This document shows, piece after piece, positions 24,545 through 45,004 of a DNA stretch of 64,000 nucleotides. Made by a program: the position numbers and the translations under genes. Each line of letters begins with the position of its first letter. Positions within the stretch are counted from its first letter, which is position 1. The DNA is from Candidatus Kaiserbacteria bacterium. Lineage in GTDB: Bacteria; Patescibacteriota; Minisyncoccia; Phycocordibacterales; UBA918. The DNA is taken from assembly GCA_016699245.1 (NCBI GenBank), contig CP064968.1:89686-153685 (forward strand). The letters are read 5' to 3'. The notes beneath the pieces were generated by a model that had not been told where the DNA came from, did no database searches, and saw only the letters and a program-made list of their open reading frames with translations.

Positions 24545-25900
24545 TTACTCACTTATGGTACGAAGAATTTCCGCGAGGGTGGTTTTGCCTGCGACTGCTT
24601 TACGTAATCCATCTTCAAACATGGTAGTCATGCCTTCCTCAATCGCAATATTTTTAAGCACGACAGAAGATTTGCGTTCAAGAATTGCTTCGCGCACACG
24701 AGGGGAAGTAACAAGTACTTCGTATATTCCGATACGCCCCGAAAATCCAGTACGATCACACGCTTCACAGCCTTTACCTTTATAAAAAGTATTCGGAATG
24801 TTTTTAAGATTTTGTTTGAGGCGGTCGGGGAGTATGCGAAGGAGATTATGGCGCTCTGCCTCAGTGAGTGCGTGTGCTTCGGTACAATGTGGACATATTT
24901 TGCGAACAAGACGCTGACCGATGGCGATATTGATTGTTGATGCCACAAGGTATGCGTCGATTCCCATATCAAGAAGACGGGGAAGTGTGGTGGCTGCGTC
25001 ATTCGTATGAAGTGTGGAGAGAAGAAGGTGACCGGTGAGTGCAGTGTTGATTGCAATGCCTGCCGTCTCTGTATCACGTATTTCACCCACCATAATGATG
25101 TTGGGGTCCTGGCGCAAAATTGAGCGAAGTCCTTGTGCAAACGTGAGATTGGTACGAGTATTAATTTGAATTTGTGTGATACCCGGAATTGCGTACTCGA
25201 TGGGGTCTTCAATAGTGATAATCGATACCTCTTTTTTATTGAGCATTTTAATAAGCGTATAGAGGGATGTAGTTTTTCCGGAGCCTGTGGGGCCTGTGGC
25301 GAGAATCATTCCGTGGGGTTGCGCTATGGCGCGTTCAATTTTTTCTTGATCTTGAGGACTAAAGCCAAGCATCTCAAGTGTAAAATTGGATGAGTGATCG
25401 GCAAGGAGACGCAAGACGGCATTTTCCCCATAGTAGGTGGGAGTGATAGAAACACGAATATCGATAGGCTTGGTGTCGTTGGTGCCGGTTTGCATACGAA
25501 AGCGCCCGTCTTGCGCTGCCTGGTGCTCATCAGTGCGGAGCCCAGAAAGCACTTTGATGCGTGAAATGACTTCAGAGAGAATATTTTTTGGGAACGTACA
25601 CTTATCTTGTAATACACCATCAATGCGTAAACGCACGACCGCATCTTGTTCGGTGGGGTCAATGTGTATATCGGATGCACGAAGTGCGTATGCTTCTTCA
25701 ATACACGTTTGTACAAACTCAATAATAGGAATTGGTCCTGGGCGTGAAAGTATTTCCCGCACACTACCAGTTGTCGTTGGTGTTTGGCCCTGGTCTTTTA
25801 TGTCGATACTTTTCTCACCTTGAGACTGGTTCATGGTTTTGTGATTATGTGCTTCAGTGTGGGCCTTGTCTAGAGAGTCGGCTGGACAAGTGTTGGACAC
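24545..25900 (-). CDS. pilB: type IV pilus assembly ATPase PilB (GspE family)
   Basis: GPTGSGKTT Walker A, GEIRD Walker B/Asp box, His box, and tetracysteine motif CPHC...CEAC. Confidence 0.85.
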   Translation of the reverse strand: MSNTCPADSLDKAHTEAHNHKTMNQSQGEKSIDIKDQGQTPTTTGSVREILSRPGPIPIIEFVQTCIEEAYALRASDIHIDPTEQDAVVRLRIDGVLQDKCTFPKNILSEVISRIKVLSGLRTDEHQAAQDGRFRMQTGTNDTKPIDIRVSITPTYYGENAVLRLLADHSSNFTLEMLGFSPQDQEKIERAIAQPHGMILATGPTGSGKTTSLYTLIKMLNKKEVSIITIEDPIEYAIPGITQIQINTRTNLTFAQGLRSILRQDPNIIMVGEIRDTETAGIAINTALTGHLLLSTLHTNDAATTLPRLLDMGIDAYLVASTINIAIGQRLVRKICPHCTEAHALTEAERHNLLRILPDRLKQNLKNIPNTFYKGKGCEACDRTGFSGRIGIYEVLVTSPRVREAILERKSSVVLKNIAIEEGMTTMFEDGLRKAVAGKTTLAEILRTISE

Positions 25901-29432: not shown

Positions 29433-30866
29433 ATGAGGGATATAAAATACAGAGATCACGCGGTTGCACCTATGTTATGGTCACGATACGCTACCTATTT
29501 TTTTGTGATGCTCGCTATTCTTCTTATCCCAGTCTTATTAGCATTCAAAGTAGAAGCAGACGTTGCTATTTTTCATTCAGACACGTATCTCGAGCAGGGC
29601 GTTGAGATGACGCATGAGTCAGGAACTGAAAAATATATACAGTATGAACACTTTTGGAGTGATTTTGAAGGAGTTGTTCCCGAAGATGCTCTTGTAAACA
29701 ATATTACACTCCATCTTACGTGGTCACCGGTGACGCGCGTGGTCTCTGATGGGGCAGTGGAAGATTCTCCAAAAGAGGTGACTCCAGAAAGTACTCATGA
29801 AGAGGTGATGAATGAACTACCTACGCCTGAAGAGCAATTAGGGGAATCATTGCATGAGGAACTCCCTGTAGAGCCAGACGTTGCTATTCCTGAAGAAACA
29901 GAACCTTCTTCAGAGGCGGTTATTCCTGTAGACAGTATTGATGAGCCTGAAGAAGTAATTATAGAAGAATCCACCTCTGATTCGCCTCCCGAAGCGAGTG
30001 ATAATTCATCGGAGACTGTGGGATTTGAGGAGGTTTCATGGAATCATTTGTATTCATTAGTTAATGCGCAGATTGAAGAGGAAGTTGCAACAAATACAAT
30101 AGTAATAACTGAAGGAAGTGAACCTGAAGTGATAATTACTGAGTCTATTTCGACCACTTCAGGATTTGTCTCGGAAGATATTTTGATTGAAAATCAGGCT
30201 GAGAAGTTCTTTGAAGTGCGGTATACGATTGATGGGGTGACATGGCAAGAGCTTGGGAATGTTGGATTTGATGATGCACAGGATACAGTATTTGATCTTT
30301 CACCTATAGGTATTGATGCAATACCAAACCTACGCGTTGCTATTCGATACACCGTTCGTGATGGAGAAACGACGAAGATTATTTTTGATTCAATGCGACT
30401 CGAAGTCGGATATGGAGCACCGGTCATAGAGGAAGTCGCTCCGCCCACCCTACAAAATGATAGCGAACCAAATTTTGACGTTGGTGCAATTAAGGCTGAT
30501 GTCCAATCGGAAAATATTCGAGCGGTTGTACTCGAAAGAGGAGGAGTCTTTGAGTTTTGGTACTCCGTCACTGACCCGCAATCAGGTGCAGTTTTTTGGA
30601 ATAAAATTCTTGGAGGAGGGGCTGTTGATGAGAATGCACCGATCGGTATTAAAAAACGGACGATATTTTGGCTTGATCGCAATCAACAAACACTCTTTGG
30701 GTTTGCTGTTGATGAAGAATCAATATTTGCAACTCCATTTCAAGATGACCAGGAAAGTAAAGTCTTTCTCCTTCCATTTACAGATGAAAATGGCAAGCCG
30801 TGGGAAGCACTATTTAATTCCTCAGAGAACGTACTTGAGTTCAGTAAAGTAAAAAGTGAATCATGA
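29433..30866 (+). CDS. membrane-anchored surface protein with E/P/S-rich acidic linker
   Basis: N-terminal TM (FFVMLAILLIPVLLAF), ~120-aa acidic low-complexity region, then a ~250-aa globular region; stop overlaps the start of the giant gene (ATGA). Confidence 0.5.
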   Translation: MRDIKYRDHAVAPMLWSRYATYFFVMLAILLIPVLLAFKVEADVAIFHSDTYLEQGVEMTHESGTEKYIQYEHFWSDFEGVVPEDALVNNITLHLTWSPVTRVVSDGAVEDSPKEVTPESTHEEVMNELPTPEEQLGESLHEELPVEPDVAIPEETEPSSEAVIPVDSIDEPEEVIIEESTSDSPPEASDNSSETVGFEEVSWNHLYSLVNAQIEEEVATNTIVITEGSEPEVIITESISTTSGFVSEDILIENQAEKFFEVRYTIDGVTWQELGNVGFDDAQDTVFDLSPIGIDAIPNLRVAIRYTVRDGETTKIIFDSMRLEVGYGAPVIEEVAPPTLQNDSEPNFDVGAIKADVQSENIRAVVLERGGVFEFWYSVTDPQSGAVFWNKILGGGAVDENAPIGIKKRTIFWLDRNQQTLFGFAVDEESIFATPFQDDQESKVFLLPFTDENGKPWEALFNSSENVLEFSKVKSES

Positions 30867-33800
30867 TGCGAGAGCGGCTCTTTCCATACATACGAGCGTT
30901 GTCGAAAAGACACATACTCATGGTGGGTGTTAGTTTTTTTATTATGGGCGTGTGTATTCTTGGCACACGACACCTTCTCGTTGGTGAAAAAGTTGGGCAG
31001 TTTATAAGGACGAATCGGGCGCTTGCACACTACCAATTCACCCCCACGCATGGCACCATCGTCACCGGCGCATCCACCACCATCACCTCAGCTACCGGAA
31101 ATACTACTGAAGGAGTCAATGTGGGTTCATGGAAGGGAACACTCTCCGACGATAACTATCACTGGGTCGTCGCTGGGGCAGGAGCAAGCGGACTTGATGT
31201 CAACCTCACCATGGGTGGGGTACAGTTAAACGGCGCCAACAAACTCATTGTCCAAACAGAATTTGACCTCGATGCGACCATTCTTGCAACTGAGGTACAG
31301 ATTTGTGACTGGACGTCATCAACTGATGTGGACGATGCCGCAGACAGTGAATGTACGGGTGGCGGGTGGCGTACCCTCAACACAAAAAATGAACTGCAAG
31401 GCCCGCAACGCCTCGTACACAGCACCGGTATCCCATTTCAGTGGCACCTTTATAACGGGTATTGGTCTACCGGCACGACCGGGGGAGCAGCGGTTGATAC
31501 GCCACTCACGAACTTCCTCAACGGTGCCGATCAGATGAAATTCCGATACTTCTCTGCCTCATCGAGCGTGTCCGAAATCGCCATTGACTACCTTCGTGTG
31601 TACGCGGTCGTCGACCCGGTCTATCACGCGGGAGGATTTGTACAGGAATCAGGCGGCACGCCGAGTGGCCACTATGGCAACACCTTTAGCGTCGGCCATT
31701 CCGTGACCGCACAATTCGCGGTGACTACCGGTGATAATATCTACCTCGGTGTCCCCGGTACGGTTGCGACTACATCAAACTTCTACCTCACCTTCAAGAA
31801 CGTGAAGACATACACCGGCATGAATACCATTCTCGTGAACGCCGAGACACTCTGTTCTCTCGCAACGGCTGGTCTCCAGTACCGATTCAAGATTCGCAAT
31901 TTTAATACCAGTATCTGGGAAGATATTTCACAACCACTCGACTGTTCTACCAACGGGTTTTTCAACAACTTTGCCTTAAACAACATCGTCATTGATGACT
32001 ACATCAATGCGTCAAACGAAATATGGGTGGGTGTCTCTGCGCTCTCAAACTCGACGACACAAATTCGCATCGACTCCATCTACCTCATGCTCGGCACTAC
32101 CAACACCGACACGAACAGTTGTGAAATATCATTTGGATCAAACACTGCAGGACGCATTGCCTCAAACCCCTCTGCGCCAGGAGCGGATCGTATCCAAGCA
32201 CTCACCTCAGATGGTACGTATATGTACGCTTCGGGATACGACAGTGCGGGAATCGATAATGAGTGGCGCATAGAGAAGCGCAATCTTTCCGACGGAGACC
32301 TCGTCTCGGCATTTGGTGTTGGTGGCGCAACCTCAACCGATCCCTCAGTTGGTGCCGACCAAATTTTCGCCATCGCCACAACCTCGGGTGCGATATTTGT
32401 TGCGGGGTATGACACAGCAGCGGGCACGGGGCAGTGGCGTATCGAGAAGCGCGATAGTACCGATGGTACGCTCGAAACCGCGTTTGATACGGATGGCATT
32501 ATCACCACAAATCCTTCAGCAAGCCTCGATCACATCAATGCGATTGCCACTGATGCGAGTTACCTCTACGTGGCAGGAGTTGAAAATACTACGAGTGGTA
32601 CGTGGCGCATTCATAAGTATGACATCACCACCGGTGCACTCGTTACCGCATTTGATGGAGATGGTATCGCGACGAGCACGCTTGCTGCCTCGGGCGACGA
32701 ACGACCGCAGGCGCTCAAGGTGGATGGCGACTATCTGTACATCGGGGGATACGACAACCTCTCCGGGAACATCGAGTGGCGTCTCGAGAAGCGCAACAAG
32801 ACCACCGGTGCACTTTGTGCGGGTGGAGGGGAGTGTGCCGCAGGTGCATTTGATACCGATGGTGTGGTGCAGACAAACCCCTCTTCGGGTATTGATGCAA
32901 TACGTGCACTCGCCATTACCGACGCACACGTGTTCCTTGCAGGATACGACTCATCAACCACAAACAACCAGTGGCGCATCGAAAAGCGCGATATCGCGAC
33001 CGGCGCACTCGATACTGCATTCGATACCGATGGTATTATGCAATATAACCCAAGTACCGGTGCTGACTGGATAACCGCACTCGCACTCGATGACACCACA
33101 CTCTACGCGATTGGAAATGTGAGCAACGGTGCGTGGCGTGTTGATGCTCGCGATATCACGACCGGTGCCTCGACGACGTTCTCCGGTAACGGTACGACAC
33201 TCTCTGAAGATGGTGGTGATGACCAGCCACTTGCCGTCGTACAGGAGGGTGGGTATCTCTATGTTGCAGGATACGGCACTGCTCCAGGAGACAACCAATG
33301 GCTCATCGAAAAACTTGCGACGAACACAGGGCTGCGGAGCACCGACAGCTTTGGTGCAAATGATTGCACCGGAACACGAAACATTGATATCACCGGCGGG
33401 AACAGAGATGCATGGACAATCCAGACACAAGATGAATCAACGAATCACAGTACTCCATACTATGCACTCGATACCGACGGTGATGCAGCAATTGAGGAAG
33501 CGGGATCAGCAACCATCGGGTTTTCGGTTGCGGTACCGGGAAACAGTGCTGTCACCGGTATCTACTGGGCAGGACGCGCAATGAACGGTGCAGGAGCGGG
33601 TACGGTGCGCCTTGCCGTGAAGGACTACTCAGGATTCACCGGCCTTACAGGAGGCAGAAGTCTCGTCGGTTCCTCACCAGGAATTGCTATGACATACACT
33701 GATCCCTTGATAGTTGGTGGTATTACCTCAGGAGGTATGGCAGGGTACCTCACAAACCCTGAGGATTATATTGATACCTTAAATAATGAGATGTCACTCA

Positions 33801-34270
33801 GTCTCGTGACCAACTCGGATGGTGCGAGTACCACGAATGCCGTGAACGTATGGGACTTTGCGATGGTGAGTTTTAGTTGGGTGGAGGATCCTGATCATGA
33901 AAGCGCCACGTATCAATTCACCCCCACGCATGGCACCATCGTCACCGGCGCATCCACCACCATCACCTCAGCTACCGGAAATACTACTGAAGGAGTCAAT
34001 GTGGGTTCATGGAAGGGAACACTCTCCGACGATAACTATCACTGGGTCGTCGCTGGGGCAGGAGCAAGCGGACTTGATGTCAACCTCACCATGGGTGGGG
34101 TACAGTTAAACGGCGCCAACAAACTCATTGTCCAAACAGAATTTGACCTCGATGCGACCATTCTTGCAACTGAGGTACAGATTTGTGACTGGACGTCATC
34201 AACTGATGTGGACGATGCCGCAGACAGTGAATGTACGGGTGGCGGGTGGCGTACCCTCAACACAAAATGA
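30863..34270 (+). CDS. giant surface beta-propeller protein, part 1 (N-terminal TM + repeat unit 1 + start of unit 2; truncated by TGA created by an A4 tract)
   Basis: N-terminal TM; ~60-aa repeats of form AGYD...WRIEKRDxxDGTLxTAFDTDGI resembling delta-60-type beta-propeller repeats; terminates at 34268 where copy 2 has A4 instead of A6. Confidence 0.6.
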   Translation: MMRERLFPYIRALSKRHILMVGVSFFIMGVCILGTRHLLVGEKVGQFIRTNRALAHYQFTPTHGTIVTGASTTITSATGNTTEGVNVGSWKGTLSDDNYHWVVAGAGASGLDVNLTMGGVQLNGANKLIVQTEFDLDATILATEVQICDWTSSTDVDDAADSECTGGGWRTLNTKNELQGPQRLVHSTGIPFQWHLYNGYWSTGTTGGAAVDTPLTNFLNGADQMKFRYFSASSSVSEIAIDYLRVYAVVDPVYHAGGFVQESGGTPSGHYGNTFSVGHSVTAQFAVTTGDNIYLGVPGTVATTSNFYLTFKNVKTYTGMNTILVNAETLCSLATAGLQYRFKIRNFNTSIWEDISQPLDCSTNGFFNNFALNNIVIDDYINASNEIWVGVSALSNSTTQIRIDSIYLMLGTTNTDTNSCEISFGSNTAGRIASNPSAPGADRIQALTSDGTYMYASGYDSAGIDNEWRIEKRNLSDGDLVSAFGVGGATSTDPSVGADQIFAIATTSGAIFVAGYDTAAGTGQWRIEKRDSTDGTLETAFDTDGIITTNPSASLDHINAIATDASYLYVAGVENTTSGTWRIHKYDITTGALVTAFDGDGIATSTLAASGDERPQALKVDGDYLYIGGYDNLSGNIEWRLEKRNKTTGALCAGGGECAAGAFDTDGVVQTNPSSGIDAIRALAITDAHVFLAGYDSSTTNNQWRIEKRDIATGALDTAFDTDGIMQYNPSTGADWITALALDDTTLYAIGNVSNGAWRVDARDITTGASTTFSGNGTTLSEDGGDDQPLAVVQEGGYLYVAGYGTAPGDNQWLIEKLATNTGLRSTDSFGANDCTGTRNIDITGGNRDAWTIQTQDESTNHSTPYYALDTDGDAAIEEAGSATIGFSVAVPGNSAVTGIYWAGRAMNGAGAGTVRLAVKDYSGFTGLTGGRSLVGSSPGIAMTYTDPLIVGGITSGGMAGYLTNPEDYIDTLNNEMSLSLVTNSDGASTTNAVNVWDFAMVSFSWVEDPDHESATYQFTPTHGTIVTGASTTITSATGNTTEGVNVGSWKGTLSDDNYHWVVAGAGASGLDVNLTMGGVQLNGANKLIVQTEFDLDATILATEVQICDWTSSTDVDDAADSECTGGGWRTLNTK

Positions 34271-36770
34271 ACTGCAAGGCCCGCAACGCCTCGTACACAG
34301 CACCGGTATCCCATTTCAGTGGCACCTTTATAACGGGTATTGGTCTACCGGCACGACCGGGGGAGCAGCGGTTGATACGCCACTCACGAACTTCCTCAAC
34401 GGTGCCGATCAGATGAAATTCCGATACTTCTCTGCCTCATCGAGCGTGTCCGAAATCGCCATTGACTACCTTCGTGTGTACGCGGTCGTCGACCCGGTCT
34501 ATCACGCGGGAGGATTTGTACAGGAATCAGGCGGCACGCCGAGTGGCCACTATGGCAACACCTTTAGCGTCGGCCATTCCGTGACCGCACAATTCGCGGT
34601 GACTACCGGTGATAATATCTACCTCGGTGTCCCCGGTACGGTTGCGACTACATCAAACTTCTACCTCACCTTCAAGAACGTGAAGACATACACCGGCATG
34701 AATACCATTCTCGTGAACGCCGAGACACTCTGTTCTCTCGCAACGGCTGGTCTCCAGTACCGATTCAAGATTCGCAATTTTAATACCAGTATCTGGGAAG
34801 ATATTTCACAACCACTCGACTGTTCTACCAACGGGTTTTTCAACAACTTTGCCTTAAACAACATCGTCATTGATGACTACATCAATGCGTCAAACGAAAT
34901 ATGGGTGGGTGTCTCTGCGCTCTCAAACTCGACGACACAAATTCGCATCGACTCCATCTACCTCATGCTCGGCACTACCAACACCGACACGAACAGTTGT
35001 GAAATATCATTTGGATCAAACACTGCAGGACGCATTGCCTCAAACCCCTCTGCGCCAGGAGCGGATCGTATCCAAGCACTCACCTCAGATGGTACGTATA
35101 TGTACGCTTCGGGATACGACAGTGCGGGAATCGATAATGAGTGGCGCATAGAGAAGCGCAATCTTTCCGACGGAGACCTCGTCTCGGCATTTGGTGTTGG
35201 TGGCGCAACCTCAACCGATCCCTCAGTTGGTGCCGACCAAATTTTCGCCATCGCCACAACCTCGGGTGCGATATTTGTTGCGGGGTATGACACAGCAGCG
35301 GGCACGGGGCAGTGGCGTATCGAGAAGCGCGATAGTACCGATGGTACGCTCGAAACCGCGTTTGATACGGATGGCATTATCACCACAAATCCTTCAGCAA
35401 GCCTCGATCACATCAATGCGATTGCCACTGATGCGAGTTACCTCTACGTGGCAGGAGTTGAAAATACTACGAGTGGTACGTGGCGCATTCATAAGTATGA
35501 CATCACCACCGGTGCACTCGTTACCGCATTTGATGGAGATGGTATCGCGACGAGCACGCTTGCTGCCTCGGGCGACGAACGACCGCAGGCGCTCAAGGTG
35601 GATGGCGACTATCTGTACATCGGGGGATACGACAACCTCTCCGGGAACATCGAGTGGCGTCTCGAGAAGCGCAACAAGACCACCGGTGCACTTTGTGCGG
35701 GTGGAGGGGAGTGTGCCGCAGGTGCATTTGATACCGATGGAGTGGTGCAGACAAACCCCTCTGCTGGTGTCGATACAATACGCGCACTCGCCATTACCGA
35801 CACACATGTTTTCGTTGCAGGATACGACTCCTCAACCACGAACAACCAGTGGCGCATCGAAAAGCGCGATATCGCGACCGGCGCACTTGAAACTGCATTC
35901 GATACCGATGGTATTATGCAATATAACCCAAGTACCGGTGCTGACTGGATAACCGCACTCGCACTCGATGACACCACACTCTACGCGATTGGAAATGTGA
36001 GCAACGGTGCGTGGCGTGTTGATGCCCGTGACATAACAACAGGTGCCTCGACGACGTTCTCCGGTAACGGTACGACACTCTCTGAAGATGGTGGTGATGA
36101 CCAGCCACTTGCCGTCGTACAGGAGGGTGGGTATCTCTATGTTGCAGGATACGGCACTGCTCCAGGAGACAACCAATGGCTCATCGAAAAACTTGCGACG
36201 AACACAGGGCTGCGGAGCACCGACAGCTTTGGTGCAAATGATTGCACCGGAACACGAAACATTGATATCACCGGCGGGAACAGAGATGCATGGACAATCC
36301 AGACACAAGATGAATCAACGAATCACAGTACTCCATACTATGCACTCGATACCGACGGTGATGCAGCAATTGAGGAAGCGGGATCAGCAACCATCGGGTT
36401 TTCGGTTGCGGTACCGGGAAACAGTGCTGTCACCGGTATCTACTGGGCAGGACGCGCAATGAACGGTGCAGGAGCGGGTACGGTGCGCCTTGCCGTGAAG
36501 GACTACTCAGGATTCACCGGCCTTACAGGAGGCAGAAGTCTCGTCGGTTCCTCACCAGGAATTGCTATGACATACACTGATCCCTTGATAGTTGGTGGTA
36601 TTACCTCAGGAGGTATGGCAGGGTACCTCACAAACCCTGAGGATTATATTGATACCTTAAATAATGAGATGTCACTCAGTCTCGTAACGAACTCGGATGG
36701 TGCAAGTACCACGAATGCCGTGAACGTATGGGACTTTGCGATGGTGAGTTTTAGTTGGGTGGAGCCGGAA
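31023..36770 (+). repeat. 2 x 2,874-bp near-identical tandem duplication inside the giant surface gene
   Basis: Copy 1 31023-33896 and copy 2 33897-36770; the 5' ~1.85 kb is identical apart from the A-tract, with clustered substitutions in the 3' third. Confidence 0.9.
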
Positions 36771-37172
36771 CCCGTGCCAGTCTATTCGATATCAATTACC
36801 AGTGATGGAACAATACAGTATGGGTTTGTAGACCTGAGTGTAGCGAGTTCGACCGTTGGTGGGGATACACAGGCAGCAGAAAATACGGGAAGCCTTAATG
36901 AAAAAATAAATATTCGTTCAAGTAACGCTCTTGGCGGGACGAGCTGGCTTCTTGCATCAGTAATTGGAAGTAATCAGTATACTCATGAATTTTCGACAAC
37001 GACGGGAGTAACGTGGAAAACAATGCCCGATAGCAGTACATACGTGGTTGCAGATCCGTCTGTGACACCAAGTGGTACGGTAGATTTTGATTTTAGACTC
37101 ACGATGCCAAGCGGCACCACTGATTTTGTTGAAAAATCAATTACTATTACAGTCCAGGCCGTCGCCCCATAG
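34266..37172 (+). CDS. giant surface beta-propeller protein, part 2 (remainder of repeat unit 2 + unique C-terminal ~130-aa domain)
   Basis: Frame continuing copy 2 after the A-tract shift (ORF-track 34128..37172; the first ~45 residues of that ORF are out-of-frame read-through). Confidence 0.6.
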   Translation, partial: NELQGPQRLVHSTGIPFQWHLYNGYWSTGTTGGAAVDTPLTNFLNGADQMKFRYFSASSSVSEIAIDYLRVYAVVDPVYHAGGFVQESGGTPSGHYGNTFSVGHSVTAQFAVTTGDNIYLGVPGTVATTSNFYLTFKNVKTYTGMNTILVNAETLCSLATAGLQYRFKIRNFNTSIWEDISQPLDCSTNGFFNNFALNNIVIDDYINASNEIWVGVSALSNSTTQIRIDSIYLMLGTTNTDTNSCEISFGSNTAGRIASNPSAPGADRIQALTSDGTYMYASGYDSAGIDNEWRIEKRNLSDGDLVSAFGVGGATSTDPSVGADQIFAIATTSGAIFVAGYDTAAGTGQWRIEKRDSTDGTLETAFDTDGIITTNPSASLDHINAIATDASYLYVAGVENTTSGTWRIHKYDITTGALVTAFDGDGIATSTLAASGDERPQALKVDGDYLYIGGYDNLSGNIEWRLEKRNKTTGALCAGGGECAAGAFDTDGVVQTNPSAGVDTIRALAITDTHVFVAGYDSSTTNNQWRIEKRDIATGALETAFDTDGIMQYNPSTGADWITALALDDTTLYAIGNVSNGAWRVDARDITTGASTTFSGNGTTLSEDGGDDQPLAVVQEGGYLYVAGYGTAPGDNQWLIEKLATNTGLRSTDSFGANDCTGTRNIDITGGNRDAWTIQTQDESTNHSTPYYALDTDGDAAIEEAGSATIGFSVAVPGNSAVTGIYWAGRAMNGAGAGTVRLAVKDYSGFTGLTGGRSLVGSSPGIAMTYTDPLIVGGITSGGMAGYLTNPEDYIDTLNNEMSLSLVTNSDGASTTNAVNVWDFAMVSFSWVEPEPVPVYSISITSDGTIQYGFVDLSVASSTVGGDTQAAENTGSLNEKINIRSSNALGGTSWLLASVIGSNQYTHEFSTTTGVTWKTMPDSSTYVVADPSVTPSGTVDFDFRLTMPSGTTDFVEKSITITVQAVAP

Positions 37173-37255
37173 TTTTAGAAAGTATAAAAAATGTTGATAA
37201 GCGTGAAGTAATCATGATGTTACTTGATACAATATAATAGAATTAATTAAATACT

Positions 37256-37807
37256 ATGTACCATCTTAATCACCACCAACTTTTTGGAGTAATAGAAAAA
37301 GCACGACACCAACTTTTTTTCATTGTAGTAAGTATGCTTTCGATCGCGATTGTTTTTGGTGGTATGAATGCTTTTGCACAGAGTACTGATACGGTGACTG
37401 CTACCGTGACCGCAACGAATCTTGCAGTCTCTGTTTCTGATGGTACTATCGCCTTTGGCTCAGTGGCGCTCAATACCGCAACAACGACCGTTGGCACCGC
37501 GCAAACACAAACCGTTTCTAATGATGGTTCGGCTGCAGTGCTTAATGTTAAATCGAGCAATGCAACAAATGGTACATTGTGGACTCTCGGCACAAGTCCT
37601 GGTTCGGATATTTTTAAACTCGAAGTATCAACAACGACGGGATCAACATACGGGACGCTTCAGGCTACTGACGTATATCTCACCGCATCATCAACGTTTG
37701 CCTCACTCACAAATCAAAACGTTGATTTCCGCTTCACGACACCAACTGTCTCCACAGACTTCGTCCAAAAGTCACTCACTATTACCGTGCAGGTGACGAC
37801 ACCATAA
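37256..37807 (+). CDS. small secreted protein paralogous to the C-terminal domain of the giant protein
   Basis: TM/signal, then a domain aligning with 36771..37172 (LWTLGTS vs SWLLASV; EVSTTTGSTYG vs EFSTTTGVTWK; DFRFTTP vs DFDFRLTMP; KSLTITVQV vs KSITITVQA). Confidence 0.5.
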   Translation: MYHLNHHQLFGVIEKARHQLFFIVVSMLSIAIVFGGMNAFAQSTDTVTATVTATNLAVSVSDGTIAFGSVALNTATTTVGTAQTQTVSNDGSAAVLNVKSSNATNGTLWTLGTSPGSDIFKLEVSTTTGSTYGTLQATDVYLTASSTFASLTNQNVDFRFTTPTVSTDFVQKSLTITVQVTTP

Positions 37808-37819
37808 TTACCTATTTAG

Positions 37820-38479
37820 ATGAAATATGGTATACCTATCTACATGCGATTAGCCACATACTCAGTTTTAGTAAAAATTCTGTTTGTCTTTGGGATTGTT
37901 TCTGTACTATTTTTACTCTCCTCAGAGGAGATGTTTGCGAAAGTTGGTGTGGGGATGGGTGCAGGTGAGATTCGAGTAACAGAATCCATAAAGCCAGGGG
38001 GGATTTACTCACTTCCCAGCCTTCGTGTGTTTAATACCGGAGATGAAACGACTACGTATGGAATGAATATTGCGTATCATCAGGACAATCCACAACTACG
38101 ACCAGGAAAATCATGGTTTTCTTTTACTCCTGCAACGTTCACGATAGAACCAGGTGAAAGTCAGGAAGTTCAGATATCGATGTCAGTCCCGGTGAAAACT
38201 GATCCGGGAGAATATTTTGCTTTTCTCGAAAGCGGACCAGTTGCGGAGGGTGGCCCAGGAACATCGGTAGGTGTTGCTGTTGCTACAAAACTCTATTTTG
38301 ATGTTGTACATGCAAATCTTTGGAGCGCACTGACGTACAGAGTTTCTACATTTCTCACGATATATGCACCGTGGTCATGGATTGGCTTAGGGCTTCTCGT
38401 GTGTGGTGCCGTTGCTTTTATCTTTGCGCGATTCTTTTCCCTGGACGTTTCCTTACGAAAAAAGAAAACACAAGAGTAA
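37820..38479 (+). CDS. membrane-anchored beta-sandwich surface protein (DUF916/DUF3324-like architecture)
   Basis: N-terminal signal/TM, Ig-like segment (FTIEPGESQEVQISMSVPVKTDPGEYFAFLE), C-terminal TM + basic tail RKKKTQE. Confidence 0.4.
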   Translation: MKYGIPIYMRLATYSVLVKILFVFGIVSVLFLLSSEEMFAKVGVGMGAGEIRVTESIKPGGIYSLPSLRVFNTGDETTTYGMNIAYHQDNPQLRPGKSWFSFTPATFTIEPGESQEVQISMSVPVKTDPGEYFAFLESGPVAEGGPGTSVGVAVATKLYFDVVHANLWSALTYRVSTFLTIYAPWSWIGLGLLVCGAVAFIFARFFSLDVSLRKKKTQE

Positions 38480-38484
38480 TTTTA

Positions 38485-39462
38485 ATGGTCTCAAAATCTT
38501 ACGTTTTTGTTTTTTCTATACTCATCCTGTGCGCTACTGCTTTTCTCAGTTATTTTGTGGTGAGTTATGCAGCAGATATTAATGCAACCATAACAACGGG
38601 CTTATTTACTCCACTCAGCCCTCTCAATCTCGCAGTCTCTATTTCTGACAGAAGTGTCGATCTTTCATGGTCGCCACCAGCATCGAATGGGGGATCGGTA
38701 CTTATTGATTATGTGATTGAATATAAGCTCACAACTGGGGGCGTTTGGGCTGTTTTTGTTGACTCCGTTTCAACAAGTACATCAGTAACAGTAACGGGTC
38801 TTACCAATGATACCTCCTATGATTTTAGGGTTTCTGGAGTGAATGCGATTGGTCAAGGCCCCGCTTCTACACCGGTGAGCGCAACACCGGGTGCTCCCGC
38901 TCAGGTACTCGTCACTGGTATGAGCGATGTAACCATTCCAACTATCAGTACATCGGTGAGAATTACCAACGAAGGTGCGGTTGCATACGAGTACCAGTAC
39001 ACGTGGTGTGTGACGAATTCTGACGTTAATCTGTGTGGAGGAGGGGATGATATTTTTAATTCCACCGCAGCAAAACTTATTCTTCCGGGAGAGAGTTGGG
39101 ATACGAGCCTTAGTTCTACGGTACCAATAATCGGCAACTACTGGTTTCATGTGCAAGTCCTGTTTGGCTCTGATTCTTCGTATGCAAGCCAATCATTTAC
39201 GACACTGAGTGAACCCAGTGGTGGTGGGGGAGGAGGGGGAAGCAGTGGGTCAAAAAGTAAGTCTCGGTCTTGCTCGGGCGGTGACTTTAACCGAGATAAG
39301 ATTGTGAACTTGGTCGACTTTTCAATTTTCCTCATGTCGTATAACAAACCTGCACCATTCCCCAATCCTTGTGTGGATATCAATAGTGACACAAAAGTAA
39401 ACGTGGTTGATTTTTCTATTCTTCTGACACAATGGGGTAAAAAGCCGATTCTCTATAAATAA
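38485..39462 (+). CDS. secreted FN3-domain protein with Gly-rich linker and C-terminal type-I dockerin
   Basis: Signal peptide; FN3 (LSWSPPASNGGSVLIDYVIEY...TSYDFRVSGVNAIG); GGGGGGSSGS linker; two Ca-binding dockerin loops exactly matching D1-x-N3-x-D5-x-x-V8-N9-x-x-D12 (DFNRDKIVNLVD, DINSDTKVNVVD) each followed by FSI(F/L)L helix. Confidence 0.65.
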   Translation: MVSKSYVFVFSILILCATAFLSYFVVSYAADINATITTGLFTPLSPLNLAVSISDRSVDLSWSPPASNGGSVLIDYVIEYKLTTGGVWAVFVDSVSTSTSVTVTGLTNDTSYDFRVSGVNAIGQGPASTPVSATPGAPAQVLVTGMSDVTIPTISTSVRITNEGAVAYEYQYTWCVTNSDVNLCGGGDDIFNSTAAKLILPGESWDTSLSSTVPIIGNYWFHVQVLFGSDSSYASQSFTTLSEPSGGGGGGGSSGSKSKSRSCSGGDFNRDKIVNLVDFSIFLMSYNKPAPFPNPCVDINSDTKVNVVDFSILLTQWGKKPILYK

Positions 39463-39467
39463 ATTGT

Positions 39468-40340
39468 ATGACACTCACGCATCTTTCTCATTTTTATAAA
39501 ATCAGTGTGGTTATCATATTGTTTTTTTGTGCGCAAATCACCTTTGCAGCGCACGTGACATTTGAAGTGGTTCCGGCACTTGTGCCCGATGATACGGCAA
39601 CAATTATTGAAGTGCGGATGAATCCGGATGGGGTACCCATTAATGCGGTTGAGGGTACGATAGGGCTCTTTGGTGCAGGACTATCAGCCGTCTCCTCAAT
39701 TATTGTTGAAACCGGTGGTTCCGCACTGACACTCTGGCCAAGTATCCCTGAGTACTCACCTTTAGAAAAGGTGATTCGATTCACCGGCGGCACTCCCGAA
39801 ACATTTTCCGGAGACGTATTACTATTTCGCATGAGAATCTTTTCAAAAAAACCAGGAGAAATTACCACGTCGTGGCTCGGAGGCTCAGCATATCAGAGTG
39901 ATGGAATCGGTACTAAAGAAGGTGTTTCCTCACGTTCACTCACCGTATCACTTGCTCAGAATGAACCAAATCAAATAAACGCAGCATCGATCGATTCAAC
40001 ACCGCCTCGCTTTGAAGATATTCTAATCTCACAAGATATAGATGCGTATGATGGAAAGCATTTTTTGAGTTGGAATGCAATTGATGATATCTCTGGAATC
40101 GCGAGGTATGAAGTTGTGGAAGGCACCACGACCACAGAAGTGAATAATGGTGTGTATGTATTACATGATCAAGAACGAAAGACGAAGATAATTGTTATTG
40201 CATATGACCATGCAGGAAATAGTACGTCAATCAAAGTTTCGACACGATACAATACACTCGGTATCATCGTCGTCGGTGTCGTAATTGCGCTCACGCTCCT
40301 TGGGGTTTTCATTGTTCGAAGAAGATACCTCAAGCAATAA
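39468..40340 (+). CDS. membrane-anchored cohesin-like domain protein (putative dockerin receptor)
   Basis: Signal peptide; ~140-aa N-terminal beta-sandwich with cohesin-like segments (VTFEVVPALVPDDTATIIEVRMNPDGVPINAVEGTIGL...LEKVIRFTGG); C-terminal TM LGIIVVGVVIALTLLGVFIV + RRRYLKQ. Confidence 0.4.
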   Translation: MTLTHLSHFYKISVVIILFFCAQITFAAHVTFEVVPALVPDDTATIIEVRMNPDGVPINAVEGTIGLFGAGLSAVSSIIVETGGSALTLWPSIPEYSPLEKVIRFTGGTPETFSGDVLLFRMRIFSKKPGEITTSWLGGSAYQSDGIGTKEGVSSRSLTVSLAQNEPNQINAASIDSTPPRFEDILISQDIDAYDGKHFLSWNAIDDISGIARYEVVEGTTTTEVNNGVYVLHDQERKTKIIVIAYDHAGNSTSIKVSTRYNTLGIIVVGVVIALTLLGVFIVRRRYLKQ

Positions 40341-40416: not shown

Positions 40417-43400
40417 TTATACCACGCGTCTTTTTTCTTCGATTTTCTTTTCGTTTCTGTAGAAGAGAGCAGGCACGAGAACGAGGGTGAGAATCATTGC
40501 AAAGGAAAGTCCAAACATAATGGCGAATGCGAGCGGGCTCCAGAAATCAGAGATGGTTGAAAGTGGAATCATACCAACTACGGTGGTGATGGTGGTAAGG
40601 AATATTGGTCGAAGGCGAGATACGGACGCGTCAGCAACCACCTCAATGAGTGAATCCCCAGGCTTCATTGCATTGTGGTAGTGGATCATTGAGTCGAGCA
40701 GGATAATGGCGTGATTGATGATAACGCCCGCAAGTGCGATGACTCCAAGGAGTGATGTGAAGGACAGTGCTTGGCCAGTGATAGTAAGCCCCACAAAGAC
40801 GCCAATGAGTGAGAGCGGTACAGCAAGCAATAGGTAGATAGAGTAACGGATAGAGTTGAAGGAAAGTACCAAAATTGCAAGCATGAGGACAAGTCCTGCT
40901 ACGAAGGCAAGCCCCATTTCGGTAAATGACTTGTTGATGTCTTCTGTTTCTCCACCGTAGGAGATGCGTACCGAGGAGGGAAGTGTGAGTTCCGCCTCTT
41001 TCGCCTTAAATGTTGCAACAATCTCTGCGGCGGTCACACCATCTTTGGTATACGCGGAGACTGTTTCAATACGCTCTTCGTCTTCATGTGCAATATTTGA
41101 GTTTGCGGGTGCAAGTCGGTCGCGTACTACAGAACCGACGAGCACCGGCTTGCCCGTCACACTTATGACGGTGAGGTTCCTTAGGGTATCGAGGGTGACT
41201 TTTGGTGATGCGGCAAAATCAGTTTCATTCGCATCAGTTTCAATTTTTACTATGACATCGGTATCGTCACCGTCTTCGGTGATAGTCGTCGCAGTGACGC
41301 CGAATACTGCAGAACGAAGCACTTCGCCTATCATTCCTGGTGAGACACCTGCAGCACTTGCTTTGCTTCTATCAACTTCGAGGATGAGCTCGGTAGCGCT
41401 ATTGTTGGTGCTCAGTGTTACATCGCGTGTCCCATTAATGGATTCAAGAAGTCTCCCTGCGTTTTCCACCGCGAGCGCAAGTTCGTTTAAGTCTGACCCA
41501 ATAAATTTAAGCGTCACTGGTGCACCCGTTGGCGGGCCGTTTTGTTGTTCGGCAACCTTTACATCAATATTTGGTATTACGTCGAGTGTGTCACGAAGGT
41601 CTGTCGCAATTTCTTCACTTGACTCAGTACGTTCTGGTTTCAGCGTAAGTGTGATGTTAGCAAATTTTTGCCCACTTTTTCCCTCACCCGTGAAGGAAGA
41701 CCCCGCACCTGCAGTCGAGGTAAATGACTCAATGTATCCTTTGTCATAGAGTAATTCTTCAGCAGTACGAAGTGAAAGGTCGGTCTCCGCGAGTGTGGTT
41801 CCCTGACGCGTCTCTAATTCCACAAAAACAAAGTCCACGTTTTCAGGCGGGAAGAAGATAACCTTAAGGAGTCCGCTTATGGGAAGGATAAAGACGAGAA
41901 GGAAGCCAACACCCAAGGAAATGAAGAAGTATCGTTGTGCGCGTGCATTCTTAAGAAACGTGATGAGATGACTGCGATACCATGCCTGTGCGCGCCTTGT
42001 ATATTCTTCTTGCTTTGCTTCGAAACGGTTGGCATGCGAGTGCTTGGTGAGGTACACCGCAATGAGTGGTACCATGCCGAGCGCGACAATAATGGAGGCA
42101 AGAAGTACAAAGATAATGGTGAAGGGAATTGACTTAATGAATTCACCTACAATTCCCGAGAGAAAAAAGAGTGGTGCAAAAACTGCAATGGTGGTCATGG
42201 TGCCTCCGATAAGTGGCCATGCGTATTCCTTGATTGCAGCTTTTGCCGCTTCATCCGCATTGCCGTACTTTTGCATGCGTGTATGAATCGCTTCGGTAAT
42301 CACAATACCTGAGTCCACCAAGATACCCACTGCAAGGATAAGTGAAAAAAGAGAAATGAAGTTAATAGTGTTACCCGACGCGTAGAGTCCGATAAATGCA
42401 ATGACAAAAGAAAGTGGAATAGAAAGCGCTGCTACAAGGGATTCGCGCCATCCAATCGTGAGGAGGAGGCAGATGATGACGAGCGCGACAGTCTCAAAAC
42501 CCGTAGTAACTAGTTCAGAAAGGTCGGTGCGCACGGTTTCTCCCTGGTCATAGACTACAAGAACTTGTGAAGAGGCGAGGAGACCACCTTCTTTTTGCAT
42601 GGATTCCATTCTTTCAAGTGCAGCAGCCGACATTTCGGTTACGTCCACACCCGCACGCTTAAAGATTGAGAGTGTGAATGCAGACTCTGCCGGAGCACCC
42701 GCTACGGAAACGCGAGAAATACTCGTCTCACGCTCAACTCCGTTTTTCACTGTTGCAACGTCACGTACGTACACTGGTACGCCGCTACCCATACTCACGG
42801 GAATGTTTTCAATTTCACTCACTTCTTTGAGTTTGCCTTCGTAGCGTACTGCATACTCAATGTCATCAGTCACCACGGTACCTATGGGTAACGTGAGGTT
42901 GGCGAGTCCGAGTGAACGTGAGACATCACTGAGGGTGAGTCCGTATGCATTCAGTGCCGATTCACGTACTGATACTTGTACTTGATGTGCACGAACACCT
43001 TCAATGGTGACTTCTGAAACACCACGGACATTTTTAAATTCATCAGCCACGGTCTCAGCGAGTGCAGTAAATTCAAGCGCCGGCAAATCAGATGATACGG
43101 AGAGTTGAAGTATCGGTTGGTTGGCAAAATCTACTTTGTTTACCTGTGGATCGGTGGCATCAGTAGGAAGGTCTTGTTTACCTCTATCTACTGCATCTTT
43201 TAAATCTTGAATAGATTTGTCGATATCTGCACTCGCATCAAAGTTGACTACAATAATAGACGCACCATCGCGCGATGTTGAGGTAAGTGAGTCGAGGTTA
43301 TCGACATTGCTTATCTCTCGCTCGAGTTTGTTGGTGATGAGTTCTTCAATATCAAGTGCAGATGCACCAGGATATATCGTGCTCACAATACCAATCGGTA

Positions 43401-43527
43401 CAATGATTTCTGGCGCTGATTCCTTAGGAATCGCAAAGAGGGAATAGAGTCCAATACCAACGAGCGCTGCAATGAGAAGCAGACTAAATTCGCGTTTTCG
43501 AAGAAAGAAAAACCAAAGTGCATGCAT
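40417..43527 (-). CDS. RND superfamily efflux transporter (AcrB/HAE-like)
   Basis: 1036 aa, 12-TM topology with two large periplasmic loops and AcrB-like N-terminus. Confidence 0.8.
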   Translation of the reverse strand: MHALWFFFLRKREFSLLLIAALVGIGLYSLFAIPKESAPEIIVPIGIVSTIYPGASALDIEELITNKLEREISNVDNLDSLTSTSRDGASIIVVNFDASADIDKSIQDLKDAVDRGKQDLPTDATDPQVNKVDFANQPILQLSVSSDLPALEFTALAETVADEFKNVRGVSEVTIEGVRAHQVQVSVRESALNAYGLTLSDVSRSLGLANLTLPIGTVVTDDIEYAVRYEGKLKEVSEIENIPVSMGSGVPVYVRDVATVKNGVERETSISRVSVAGAPAESAFTLSIFKRAGVDVTEMSAAALERMESMQKEGGLLASSQVLVVYDQGETVRTDLSELVTTGFETVALVIICLLLTIGWRESLVAALSIPLSFVIAFIGLYASGNTINFISLFSLILAVGILVDSGIVITEAIHTRMQKYGNADEAAKAAIKEYAWPLIGGTMTTIAVFAPLFFLSGIVGEFIKSIPFTIIFVLLASIIVALGMVPLIAVYLTKHSHANRFEAKQEEYTRRAQAWYRSHLITFLKNARAQRYFFISLGVGFLLVFILPISGLLKVIFFPPENVDFVFVELETRQGTTLAETDLSLRTAEELLYDKGYIESFTSTAGAGSSFTGEGKSGQKFANITLTLKPERTESSEEIATDLRDTLDVIPNIDVKVAEQQNGPPTGAPVTLKFIGSDLNELALAVENAGRLLESINGTRDVTLSTNNSATELILEVDRSKASAAGVSPGMIGEVLRSAVFGVTATTITEDGDDTDVIVKIETDANETDFAASPKVTLDTLRNLTVISVTGKPVLVGSVVRDRLAPANSNIAHEDEERIETVSAYTKDGVTAAEIVATFKAKEAELTLPSSVRISYGGETEDINKSFTEMGLAFVAGLVLMLAILVLSFNSIRYSIYLLLAVPLSLIGVFVGLTITGQALSFTSLLGVIALAGVIINHAIILLDSMIHYHNAMKPGDSLIEVVADASVSRLRPIFLTTITTVVGMIPLSTISDFWSPLAFAIMFGLSFAMILTLVLVPALFYRNEKKIEEKRRVV

Positions 43528-43531
43528 ATTA

Positions 43532-45004
43532 TTATTTGGTTACTGATACAAGGTCACCTTCTTTGCGTCCACGGGCGTCAGTAATGATGCGACTTTCGCG
43601 AGTAATACCCTCTGTTACCTCGACTGAATCTCCGAGTATTGCACCAAGTATCACAGGATACGCTTCAAGGGTATTCGTGTCACTTACACCAAAGACCACT
43701 GAGCCTGAGGCGAGCATTTTAATTGCCTTTAAGGGTACTACTATTACTGTTGATTCCTTCTTTGTACTTTCAGAAAATACGACTGATACCGTACTACCAT
43801 TCTTGAGTGAAAGAGATTCATCGACACTAATTTTCACCTCACTCTTTCCCGTTGTGGGGTCAATAGCAGGAGCGATTTGACCGTTGTTTGCAACAATTGC
43901 GGTCTGTGCACCAATACTGATGTATTCACCTTGTGTGATGTTAAGCGCGTTCACGATGCCCGATATAGGTGTTCGCACCAATGTTTTCTCGTAGTTTACC
44001 TGTGCACTTCTGAGTCCGCCGAGTGCTTGCTTCACCTGTGCATTTGCGAGTGATGCTGTGGGATTCTCGGTGCCGCCAATTTGCGCACGACGCACATTCT
44101 CGCGAGCATTGGTGAGAGCTGTTTTTGCATTTGCAAGTGCACTGAGGGTACCGTTAAGGGAGGTCCGTGCACTATTGAGTCCGGGCATATATTCGCTGAC
44201 AAGCTTGTCTTTGAGAGAATCATTATTTTCTGCCTTGCCTACAGCATAGACGAGTGCATCTAAAATACTAATAAGATCTTTTGTACGTTCCTCTGCATCA
44301 CGAAGTGCATCATCAAGGTCACTTGACGTCGTGAGTGACGTACTTTCTTTTTGCCAAAGTATAAGCGTCTTTCCGAATGCATAGCGTGACGTATTGAGGT
44401 AGTCGCTTTTACCCTCAGAACTAATACGAACACCAGGAGTGGGTGACTCAGGATTCCCAAAGAATACATCAACCGTGTCGAGCGTGATGTCGTGTACAGA
44501 GATATACGCATTGCGGTAGGTAGTGACGGCACTGTTTTCAGCAGAGAGGAGTGCGCTCTCTGCGTCCCCCACAGAAATTTCACTTACCGCTGCACTCGCG
44601 AGTGCAGATTCATATCCAGCTTCTGCTTGAAGGAGTTGTGCACGCTCACTGCCATTCTCAATCGAGCCGAGAATGCTGCCTGCCGTGACGCGGTCACCAA
44701 TTTTTGTATTGACGGTGGTGATACGCCCACCAGCCTCTGCTTGGAGTCTTGCTTCGGAGATAGCACGCACGGTACCCACTACAGAAAAGGTGCTTTCACT
44801 ACCAAAATTCCCTACGGTCGCAAGAGTGACGGAAGGAAGGGAGGGCTCTGCTACATCAGTAGTTGTGTCATCACCAGTAACGAGGATAACGAGTATCACA
44901 AGCACCAACATGAGTCCTCCAATACGAAAGACCTTAGCACGAGTGCTTTGAGGCATAAAGAAAGCGACTGTTTTCCGAAGAAAACCAGTTATTGATTGAA
45001 TCAT
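43532..45004 (-). CDS. efflux periplasmic adaptor (membrane fusion protein, HlyD/AcrA family)
   Basis: N-terminal TM, long coiled-coil, beta-barrel/lipoyl-like segments; immediately upstream of the RND gene with 5-bp spacing. Confidence 0.6.
   Translation of the reverse strand: MIQSITGFLRKTVAFFMPQSTRAKVFRIGGLMLVLVILVILVTGDDTTTDVAEPSLPSVTLATVGNFGSESTFSVVGTVRAISEARLQAEAGGRITTVNTKIGDRVTAGSILGSIENGSERAQLLQAEAGYESALASAAVSEISVGDAESALLSAENSAVTTYRNAYISVHDITLDTVDVFFGNPESPTPGVRISSEGKSDYLNTSRYAFGKTLILWQKESTSLTTSSDLDDALRDAEERTKDLISILDALVYAVGKAENNDSLKDKLVSEYMPGLNSARTSLNGTLSALANAKTALTNARENVRRAQIGGTENPTASLANAQVKQALGGLRSAQVNYEKTLVRTPISGIVNALNITQGEYISIGAQTAIVANNGQIAPAIDPTTGKSEVKISVDESLSLKNGSTVSVVFSESTKKESTVIVVPLKAIKMLASGSVVFGVSDTNTLEAYPVILGAILGDSVEVTEGITRESRIITDARGRKEGDLVSVTK

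Follow-up and report, generated by a model that had tools for sequence, protein, structure and literature searches.

The closest described counterparts of the locus analysed here, a cassette of six surface-protein genes in Candidatus Kaiserbacteria, are the WxL clusters and the cohesin-dockerin systems. A WxL cluster consists of a small and a large WxL protein together with a WxLIP, a strand of which is predicted to complete the beta-sandwich of its WxL partner (PMC9772566, PMC10599100). In the WxL/Csc clusters of Lactobacillales and Bacillales, the WxLIP is built of a DUF916 domain, a DUF3324 domain and a transmembrane (TM) helix (PMC9772566, PMC10599100, PMC1534035). For the second kind of system, the cellulosomal references are the type I and type II cohesins of Clostridium, Acetivibrio and Ruminococcus scaffoldins and anchoring proteins, and the non-cellulosomal references are the C. 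perfringens GH84C cohesin-FN3 (2w1n), the GH33 cohesin (2vo8) and the Archaeoglobus fulgidus cohesin (2xdh).

The cassette occupies positions 29433-40340 of a 64,000-nucleotide stretch of Candidatus Kaiserbacteria DNA (the window), in which six co-directional plus-strand genes, named here g1, the giant cargo gene and g3 to g6, extend over ~11 kb. We consider, with moderate confidence, that this region is an operon for a modular surface-display or adhesion complex of Parcubacteria-type Patescibacteria, composed of two interlocking sub-modules: a WxL/DUF916-type anchoring triad (g4, g3 and the C-terminus of the large cargo protein) and a dockerin-cohesin pair (g5 and g6). A sequence-only reading of the locus had suggested that this combination was undescribed, and our literature searches (cohesin and dockerin in Patescibacteria, the Candidate Phyla Radiation and Parcubacteria; WxL in Patescibacteria) likewise found no published description of such a system.

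Candidatus Kaiserbacteria are tiny and probably host-dependent, and a central question about ultrasmall Patescibacteria is how they recognize a host and stay attached to it. To our knowledge, the factors so far implicated in attachment are limited to type IV pili and a handful of proteins from Saccharibacteria, and we know of nothing for the very large Parcubacteria branch. The cassette is a concrete and testable candidate for host attachment in Parcubacteria.

Gene order and conservation of the cassette

To our reading, the strongest evidence that the six genes belong together is their conserved order. Profile hidden Markov models (HMMs) for g3, g4, g6 and the dockerin were run on the six-frame open reading frames of 29 fetched loci (L numbers below). 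All loci with sufficient flanking sequence had the order large protein with a C-terminal g3-like domain, g3, g4, dockerin protein and cohesin protein. The sequence-only reading had singled out synteny as a check on the locus, and the gene order was indeed kept in related Patescibacteria. Chance adjacency of unrelated surface genes was ruled out, because the synteny was conserved in about 20 independent loci. These loci were from Kaiser-, Zambryski-, Campbell-, Nealson- and Pacebacteria as well as from Parcubacteria, Paceibacterota and Minisyncoccia metagenome-assembled genomes, with Nealsonbacteria CP061210.1 and a JGI contig as distant examples. Two strict peptide patterns retrieved the cassette in 19 GTDB species representatives. 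The genes on either side varied among loci, and the cassette was often followed by a second cohesin protein of 575-615 residues. Unlike these variable flanks, L030 and L037 shared a stable position, in which the cassette followed the genes for RF-1, ribosomal protein L31, S2 and EF-Ts.

The features of the window cassette, all on the plus strand, are as follows.

29433-30866, plus: g1, 477 residues; 4-nt stop/start overlap with the giant gene
30863-37172, plus: giant cargo gene, 2,103 residues after repair of a 2-nt frameshift
31034-33886, plus: first unit copy of the giant; tandem duplication of 2.85 kb
33914-36764, plus: second unit copy of the giant; 99.4% protein identity to the first copy
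34264-34270, plus: frameshift site, A4 and then TGA; the counterpart in the first copy (31384-31389) is A6
36765-37169, plus: C-terminal g3-like domain of the giant, ~135 residues; 37% identity to g3
37256-37807, plus: g3, 183 residues; signal peptide and one g3-like domain; locus tag IPH92_00515
37844-38479, plus: g4, 211 residues (219 from an alternative start at 37820); locus tag IPH92_00520
38485-39462, plus: g5, 325 residues from its true start at 38485; 325 residues are also called in independent assemblies
about 38617-38883, plus: FN3 domain of g5 (Pfam fn3, E 5e-16)
39268-39459, plus: dockerin of g5, two F-hand calcium loops
39468-40340, plus: g6, a 290-residue type-I membrane protein
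39549-39962, plus: cohesin-fold domain of g6, residues ~28-165

The genes had first been read as six or seven consecutive, co-directional plus-strand genes for exported proteins with tiny gaps or overlaps, and our analysis settled on six. An N-terminal hydrophobic signal or anchor segment was found in all six products, and g4 and g6 additionally had a C-terminal TM helix. The intergenic distances from g1 to g6 were -4, 83, 12 or 36 (depending on the g4 start), 5 and 5 nt; a 656-bp intergenic region preceded g1, and a convergent AcrB gene began 76 bp downstream of g6. A consensus scan for promoters and terminators gave fewer promoter-like sites than shuffled sequences and was uninformative. Based on gene spacing and synteny, the best reading of 29433-40340 is that it forms one operon.

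Conservation decreased along the series g3, g4 and giant C-terminus (about equal), then g5, then g6, then g1. No other protein of the cassette was as conserved as g3 (65-100% identity over 226 clusters) and g4 (57-100% over the 120 listed of 238 clusters). Across loci, g3 was 58-87% identical where g6 was only 24-53% identical, and in one locus subtype only the dockerin of g5 remained common. The distance matrices of the dockerin and the cohesin were correlated (r 0.68, partial 0.63), as were those of g3 and g4 (r 0.81, partial 0.78), and the correlation between the two pairs was weak (0.30-0.44); these mirror-tree values were dominated by two locus subtypes and were not independent of phylogeny, so we regard the co-variation as suggestive and not decisive.

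The proposed anchoring proteins and the dockerin-cohesin pair

When Pfam and NCBIfam were scanned with all window proteins, only fn3 was above threshold among the families named in the sequence-only reading; cohesin, DUF916, DUF3324, WxL and delta-60 were not, and the dockerin fell short of its cut-off (see below). Structure prediction and profile-profile methods were consequently needed to recognize the cohesin and DUF916 resemblances.

The g4 protein has a signal or TM segment, a conserved Gly-rich N-terminal segment, one immunoglobulin (Ig) domain of the PapD/ASH type (DUF916-like) and a C-terminal TM helix. A tblastn search with g4 against 7.3 Gb of plasmids returned weak matches only, to Clavibacter genes with the annotation "DUF916 domain-containing protein" and to a single hypothetical protein of Deinococcus. 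The Clavibacter protein passes the Pfam WxLIP_PGBD model. In hhalign comparisons, the g4 family aligned with a single DUF916 protein at 84% probability, and with five actinobacterial DUF916 proteins at 94.5% (E 7.8e-8) over 111 columns that covered the whole domain. The motifs PGD[YH] and G-x-SVGV were common to g4 and the actinobacterial proteins. At the profile-profile level, these data support g4 being a remote homologue of DUF916/WxLIP proteins. Of the doubly anchored DUF916/DUF3324-like protein that had been proposed, the combination of N-terminal signal and C-terminal TM helix held up and the DUF916 likeness found support at this level, whereas the DUF3324 part did not.

The small secreted protein g3 had been described as a paralog of the giant protein's C-terminal domain, which was borne out by 37% identity between g3 and the last ~135 residues of the giant and by a domain E-value of 2e-61 with the HMM built here. 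When 1.84 billion representative proteins were searched with a profile, the g3-like domain turned up in 849 clusters. In the matches listed, it was either a stand-alone secreted protein of ~165-180 residues or the last ~135 residues of proteins of 300-2,100 residues. The N-terminal parts of these large proteins carried Laminin_G_3, MAM, FG-GAP, BNR, DUF2341, DUF7483, Gly_rich_2 and FN3 domains and others of the binding type, among them CHB_HEX_C_1 and BNR_2. The g3-like domain represents an unannotated family; with this family defined, hundreds of large surface proteins now called "hypothetical" in metagenomes could be better annotated.

By analogy, g3 would occupy the position of the "small" partner in a WxL-type cluster. 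It has an invariant W109 within a W-T-L motif, and this W-x-L precedes a C-terminal [YF]xxx-[ST]-[LI]-T-[IL]-x-[VL] strand by about 67 residues; the spacing and the flanking residues are similar to those of WxL, which we treat as a lead. The strand itself reads L-T-I-T-V with no Trp, so that the second WxL motif is absent. The Pfam WxL model (PF13731) was not matched by g3 and 33 relatives at E<=1, by 64 large members of the family at E<=0.001 or by 48 diverse members at E<=0.1, and the domain had no Pfam match. A search of PDB sequences with the g3-family profile gave no meaningful match, and tblastn of g3 against the plasmids gave none.

Based on the WxLIP-WxL model, we propose that g4, as a membrane-anchored protein with a single DUF916-like Ig domain, would anchor or stabilize g3-like domains at the envelope, namely free g3 and the extreme C-terminus of the large cargo protein. 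In doing so, g4 may complete the beta-sandwich of its partner with one of its own strands.

A different use of strand donation would be polymerization. On that account, g3 would be the major subunit of a donor-strand fibre or pilus, the large protein a tip adhesin that is attached by means of its g3-like "pilin" domain, g4 a membrane-bound PapD-like chaperone or base, and the dockerin-cohesin pair the means of fixing this base to the membrane. The conservation of g3 described above is unusual for a secreted protein, and half of the g4 family matched Pfam PapD_N (best E 2e-5) as well as further Ig families of the PapD/ASH clan. Directly after its signal peptide, g4 also has an invariant alternating segment, K-V-G-V-G-M-G-A-G, that could be a donor strand. 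Furthermore, an AlphaFold2 model of monomeric g3 did not fold (predicted local distance difference test, pLDDT, 46.6), as can be the case for strand-deficient subunits, and the g3 N-terminus had a weak match to the Peptidase_M73/TasA family (E 0.42). Other points speak against a fibre. The low pLDDT is equally explained by the shallow alignment of 34 close sequences, the PapD_N-level matches are marginal and common to many Ig families, g3 had no significant similarity to pilin, TasA, camelysin or SCPU families or to PDB sequences, and the published WxLIP-WxL model accounts for strand donation with no need for polymerization. We think it unlikely that the cassette encodes a fibre.

The second sub-module consists of g5 and g6. 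The g5 protein has a signal peptide, an FN3 domain, a second beta domain, a Gly/Ser linker and a dockerin. Its two dockerin loops, DFNRDKIVNLVD and DINSDTKVNVVD, follow the canonical DxNxDxxxxxxD pattern and are succeeded by FSIFL and FSILL helices, respectively. Pfam Dockerin_1 (PF00404) scored 18.7 bits on the window protein against a cut-off of 22.9, and 35.6 and 44.9 bits, above the cut-off, on the orthologues of L003 and L007. Both calcium loops were kept in 18 of 20 complete g5 orthologue tails, and also in L030 and L037. The description of g5 as an FN3 protein with a canonical dockerin is accordingly well founded.

The g6 protein comprises a signal peptide, a domain at residues ~28-165, an FN3/Ig-like domain at ~178-260 with a weak DUF7743 match, and a TM helix at 263-289. 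It had been called a membrane-anchored cohesin-like protein. The signal peptide and C-terminal TM helix agree with this, and an AlphaFold2 model from a 55-sequence alignment (pLDDT 90.4) showed the N-terminal domain to have a cohesin fold: the model has the nine-stranded jelly roll of cohesins, and its best Foldseek match was the cohesin and FN3 double module of C. perfringens GH84C. In contrast, Pfam Cohesin (PF00963) did not match g6 at E<=1, and no precomputed match existed for 61 g6 homologues; nor did the N-terminal domain match Pfam, NCBIfam or PDB sequences. A link to the Pfam family came from a paralogous cohesin protein of 567 residues in L030, which passed Pfam Cohesin (33.5 bits, cut-off 24.1) and whose N-terminal domain matched the g6 HMM (E 4.5e-19). 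Precomputed Cohesin matches, weak or strong, were also present in L037 and one further locus.

Proteins of this second kind (567-615 residues) followed g6 in L015, L019-L024, L028, L030 (13602-15305) and L037 (14949-16694); the window cassette is without one. They consist of a cohesin, DUF7743/Big_13 Ig domains, a TM helix and a Lys/Glu-rich charged cytoplasmic tail, and they pass Pfam Cohesin. A further arrangement was seen in L005 (1-12329; GCA_964453075.1), where a giant of 5,297 residues ends in FN3-dockerin and is immediately followed by g6-like cohesin proteins of 205 and 588 residues. Judging from its domains, the cargo of L005 appears to be docked via a dockerin and not via a g3-like domain.

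The window contained one dockerin and one cohesin, adjacent to each other, and we propose that secreted g5 would plug its Ca2+-type dockerin into the cohesin of membrane-anchored g6.

Cohesin-dockerin pairs classically assemble polysaccharide-degrading complexes, and so the cassette could instead serve in glycan or nutrient capture, displaying modules that bind or degrade carbohydrates and scavenging polymers in the manner of a cellulosome or as first proposed for the Lactobacillus Csc clusters. Actinobacterial DUF916 genes do sit among GH43, RICIN and LamG proteins, and the cargo domains of the g3-like family include Laminin_G_3, CHB_HEX_C_1 and BNR_2. However, Pfam identified no glycoside hydrolase or other catalytic domain in the window cassette, there were no Pfam matches on the locus genes checked in L030, and the sole dockerin sits on a non-enzymatic FN3 protein. 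The 64-kb window has no second dockerin that would hint at a set of enzymes for docking, and we consider glycan capture very unlikely to be the purpose of the cassette.

The giant cargo gene and the proposed role in adhesion

The giant gene reads as two open reading frames (30863-34270 and 34128-37172), and it had been proposed to encode ~2,100 residues if contiguous. Where the first unit copy has A6 (31384-31389), the second has A4 (34264-34267), which leads to a stop codon at 34268-34270; adding back 2 nt restored an uninterrupted frame of 2,103 residues. Intact orthologues of 2,104-2,136 residues were 61-77% identical to it from end to end. We thus rejected the possibility of two separate giant genes in favour of a single gene with a 2-nt indel. 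Because orthologues are intact in near and far relatives alike, the frameshift probably reflects an error in long-read sequencing or polishing of a homopolymer, within a repeat that is difficult to polish; failing that, the gene would have been inactivated very recently. We did not prefer programmed phase variation at the A-run, given the short tract, the 2-nt shift and the intact orthologues, and phase variation and pseudogenization at this site are both less favoured.

The repaired protein has an N-terminal TM or signal segment, two units of ~951 residues and the C-terminal g3-like domain. The units arise from the 2.85-kb tandem duplication, the copies of which differed by 24 mismatches and one 2-nt indel. 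These mismatches were not evenly spread: 21 of them lay in one 300-bp patch (32863-33163 in the first copy, 35741-36041 in the second) and the other three in a 19-bp patch at 33808-33826. Mosaics of this kind typically come from conversion tracts or from an assembly that has merged strain variants. The giants of the window, L003, L007, L016, L017, L012 and L014 were compared. Within a giant, the units were 99.4% identical in the window, 100% in L003, L016 and L017 and 82% in a fifth species; from one species to another the identity was only 62-73%, and two species had a single unit, although copy number may be miscounted in short-read assemblies with perfect repeats. This pattern points to concerted evolution by gene conversion or to recurrent recent duplication.

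Each unit combines beta-rich N-terminal domains with seven W-R-[IVL]-E-K repeats of 54-65 residues. The seven repeats fit the earlier description of the giant as a beta-propeller protein and may form a 7-bladed propeller; the delta-60 model TIGR02608, which had been suggested for them, reached only 19.9 bits against a cut-off of 76.5, and a PDB sequence search with the unit (phmmer and hmmsearch) found no relative.

In L009 (1346-7725), the giant was broken into about 11 open reading frames, all of which matched the unit, alongside intact g1, g3, g4, g5 and g6. We take this as decay of the cargo gene or as mis-assembly of its repeat.

The g1 protein appears to be associated with this type of cargo. 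It has an N-terminal TM segment at residues ~20-38, a linker at residues 106-250 and a C-terminal domain, and it matched no Pfam or NCBIfam family. With 41 Asp or Glu residues against a single Lys or Arg, the linker justifies the name of acidic-linker membrane protein that g1 was first given. Orthologues were found only beside giants of the "unit" type (propeller units; L003, L007, L009, L012, L016 and L017), and based on this we place g1 outside the universal core as an accessory to unit-type cargo.

We infer the physical contacts between these proteins, their stoichiometry and a role in adhesion as follows. The two sub-modules would together tether a platform from which the variable N-terminal part of the cargo projects outward; in the window, this cargo would be the 2,103-residue protein with its two near-identical lectin- or propeller-like units. 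The cargo may bind a ligand on a host cell, a partner cell or a substrate, of which a host or partner cell is the most plausible given the lifestyle of cultivated Patescibacteria. Cargo would be swapped between lineages while the anchor parts stay constant. The conserved anchor set comprises g3 and g4 together with the dockerin and cohesin proteins, and the lineage-specific cargo could serve to predict or compare host range.

The same proteins might instead form a housekeeping scaffold, a constitutive S-layer-like or wall-associated lattice that maintains envelope integrity and does not bind cells. This would agree with g3 and g4 being highly conserved and widespread, with every component being directed to the membrane or surface, and with the ribosomal-protein and translation-factor genes that adjoin the cassette in two distant genomes. 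It agrees less well with the large partner, whose length and domains vary and whose lectin-, propeller- and adhesin-type domains are typical of ligand-binding cargo, or with the retrieval of the locus by the two strict peptide patterns in only 19 GTDB species representatives. Moreover, the cargo gene is frameshifted in the window and fragmented in L009, so that cargo is not obviously essential. We give this scaffold function little credence.

Several observations weigh against the adhesion complex that we favour. Pfam scans of g4 and 36 relatives gave no match to DUF916 (PF06030), and they showed a single Ig domain with no DUF3324 domain (PF11797); the NQIDKxxxYFDLK motif of Firmicutes WxLIP was also absent from the g4 consensus. 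The g3-like domain had no significant sequence link to WxL: none of the 146 members scanned had a Pfam match, and hhalign of the family against WxL-like actinobacterial domains gave a probability of 1.8%. The AlphaFold2 model of g3 provided no usable fold, a polymer or lattice would also be in keeping with how strongly g3 and g4 are conserved, the cargo gene is interrupted in the window itself, and the co-variation carries the imprint of two locus subtypes.

Beyond the adhesion complex as such, a wider joint reading can be put forward, which we hold only tentatively and think rather doubtful as a whole. The cassette would be the main non-pilus host-attachment apparatus of Parcubacteria/Paceibacteria-type Patescibacteria, a phylum-specific machine in which an ancient DUF916/WxL-type anchor was fused with a cohesin-dockerin lock. 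The C-terminal domain of ~135 residues (849 clusters) would act as an "address" that lets lineages swap adhesin cargo, and gene conversion, by keeping the 950-residue units identical, would permit a one-step change of host-binding specificity. In this joint reading, g3 could be the polymerizing subunit of a new kind of surface fibre.

Upstream of the cassette, at 19315-25900 on the minus strand, are type IV pilus/type II secretion genes (T2SSE at 24545-25900 and T2SSF at 21392-22552), a propeller protein with LVIVD repeats (19315-20913) and, at 22703-24487, a GDSL-lipase protein of 594 residues that has a BclA_C-like region. Pilus genes also adjoined the cassette in L009; their proximity may be a coincidence or may reflect a surface-structure neighbourhood. 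Downstream, at 40417-45004 on the minus strand, are genes for a full-length AcrB-type RND transporter (1,036 residues, E 2e-178) and an HlyD-like membrane-fusion protein. This lineage is usually described as having no outer membrane, and an AcrB-type transporter is unexpected for Patescibacteria.

Comparison with described systems

The cassette shares its logic with WxL/Csc clusters. In both, a small secreted protein consisting only of the domain in question accompanies a large protein in which variable binding domains come first and this domain is placed at the extreme C-terminus. Both also have a conserved protein of Ig fold that ends in a TM helix, here g4, a probable remote homologue of DUF916/WxLIP_PGBD. 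The cassette thus has the architecture by which Hassan and Williamson defined a WxL cluster, with the g3-like domain standing in for WxL. In contrast to WxL/Csc clusters, it has no Pfam WxL, DUF916 or DUF3324 matches and lacks the second WxL motif. Where a WxLIP has two Ig domains and 337-365 residues, g4 has one and 211. The cassette also has no LPxTG protein and always has the dockerin-cohesin pair attached, and its hosts are Patescibacteria, whereas >90% of known WxL proteins are in Bacilli. The likeness to Firmicutes WxL loci noted in the sequence-only reading thus holds family-wide for the small/large pairing and the TM-anchored Ig protein, but not for sequence homology between g3 and WxL.

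A comparable situation was found in DUF916 clusters on actinobacterial plasmids (Clavibacter, Cellulosimicrobium, Arthrobacter and Streptomyces; L032-L036), in which the DUF916 protein likewise has a C-terminal TM helix. These genes adjoin a small secreted beta protein, or a large GH43-RICIN protein whose C-terminal domain is homologous (E ~1e-7). Sub-threshold scores for Pfam WxL (19.5-20.4 bits) were obtained with two of these partner domains, that of the small protein in Arthrobacter and that at the end of the GH43-RICIN protein, which suggests that WxL-type clusters reach, in divergent form, beyond Firmicutes; the g3 family had no such scores. Unlike g4, the actinobacterial proteins have a second Ig domain (~320-350 residues in all) and pass Pfam WxLIP_PGBD, and their clusters have no cohesin or dockerin genes annotated nearby.

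Resemblance to chaperone-usher systems is by analogy only. As in FimH and PapG, a large adhesin ends in a copy of the small subunit's domain, and as in PapD systems the operon encodes an Ig protein of the PapD/ASH clan; strand complementation is a plausible way of assembly. Unlike chaperone-usher fibres, and also TasA and archaeal bundling-pilus fibres, the cassette has no usher, no outer membrane and no significant pilin or TasA similarity, and the putative "chaperone" g4 is membrane-anchored.

In comparison with known cohesins, g6 has only 10-16% sequence identity and no Pfam Cohesin match, and it is anchored by a C-terminal TM helix instead of SLH domains or sortase. Unlike a cellulosome, the cassette has one cohesin and one dockerin with no scaffoldin and no enzymes, and the pair is embedded in a DUF916/WxL-like cassette. 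This enzyme-free, membrane-anchored use of cohesin and dockerin would be a new addition to the known repertoire, and the locus would extend the DUF916/WxL paradigm far outside Bacilli. Non-cellulosomal cohesin-dockerin pairs and WxL clusters are each already known separately; what appear to be new are their obligatory combination, the single-domain relative of DUF916 and the unannotated family of anchor domains in this phylum.

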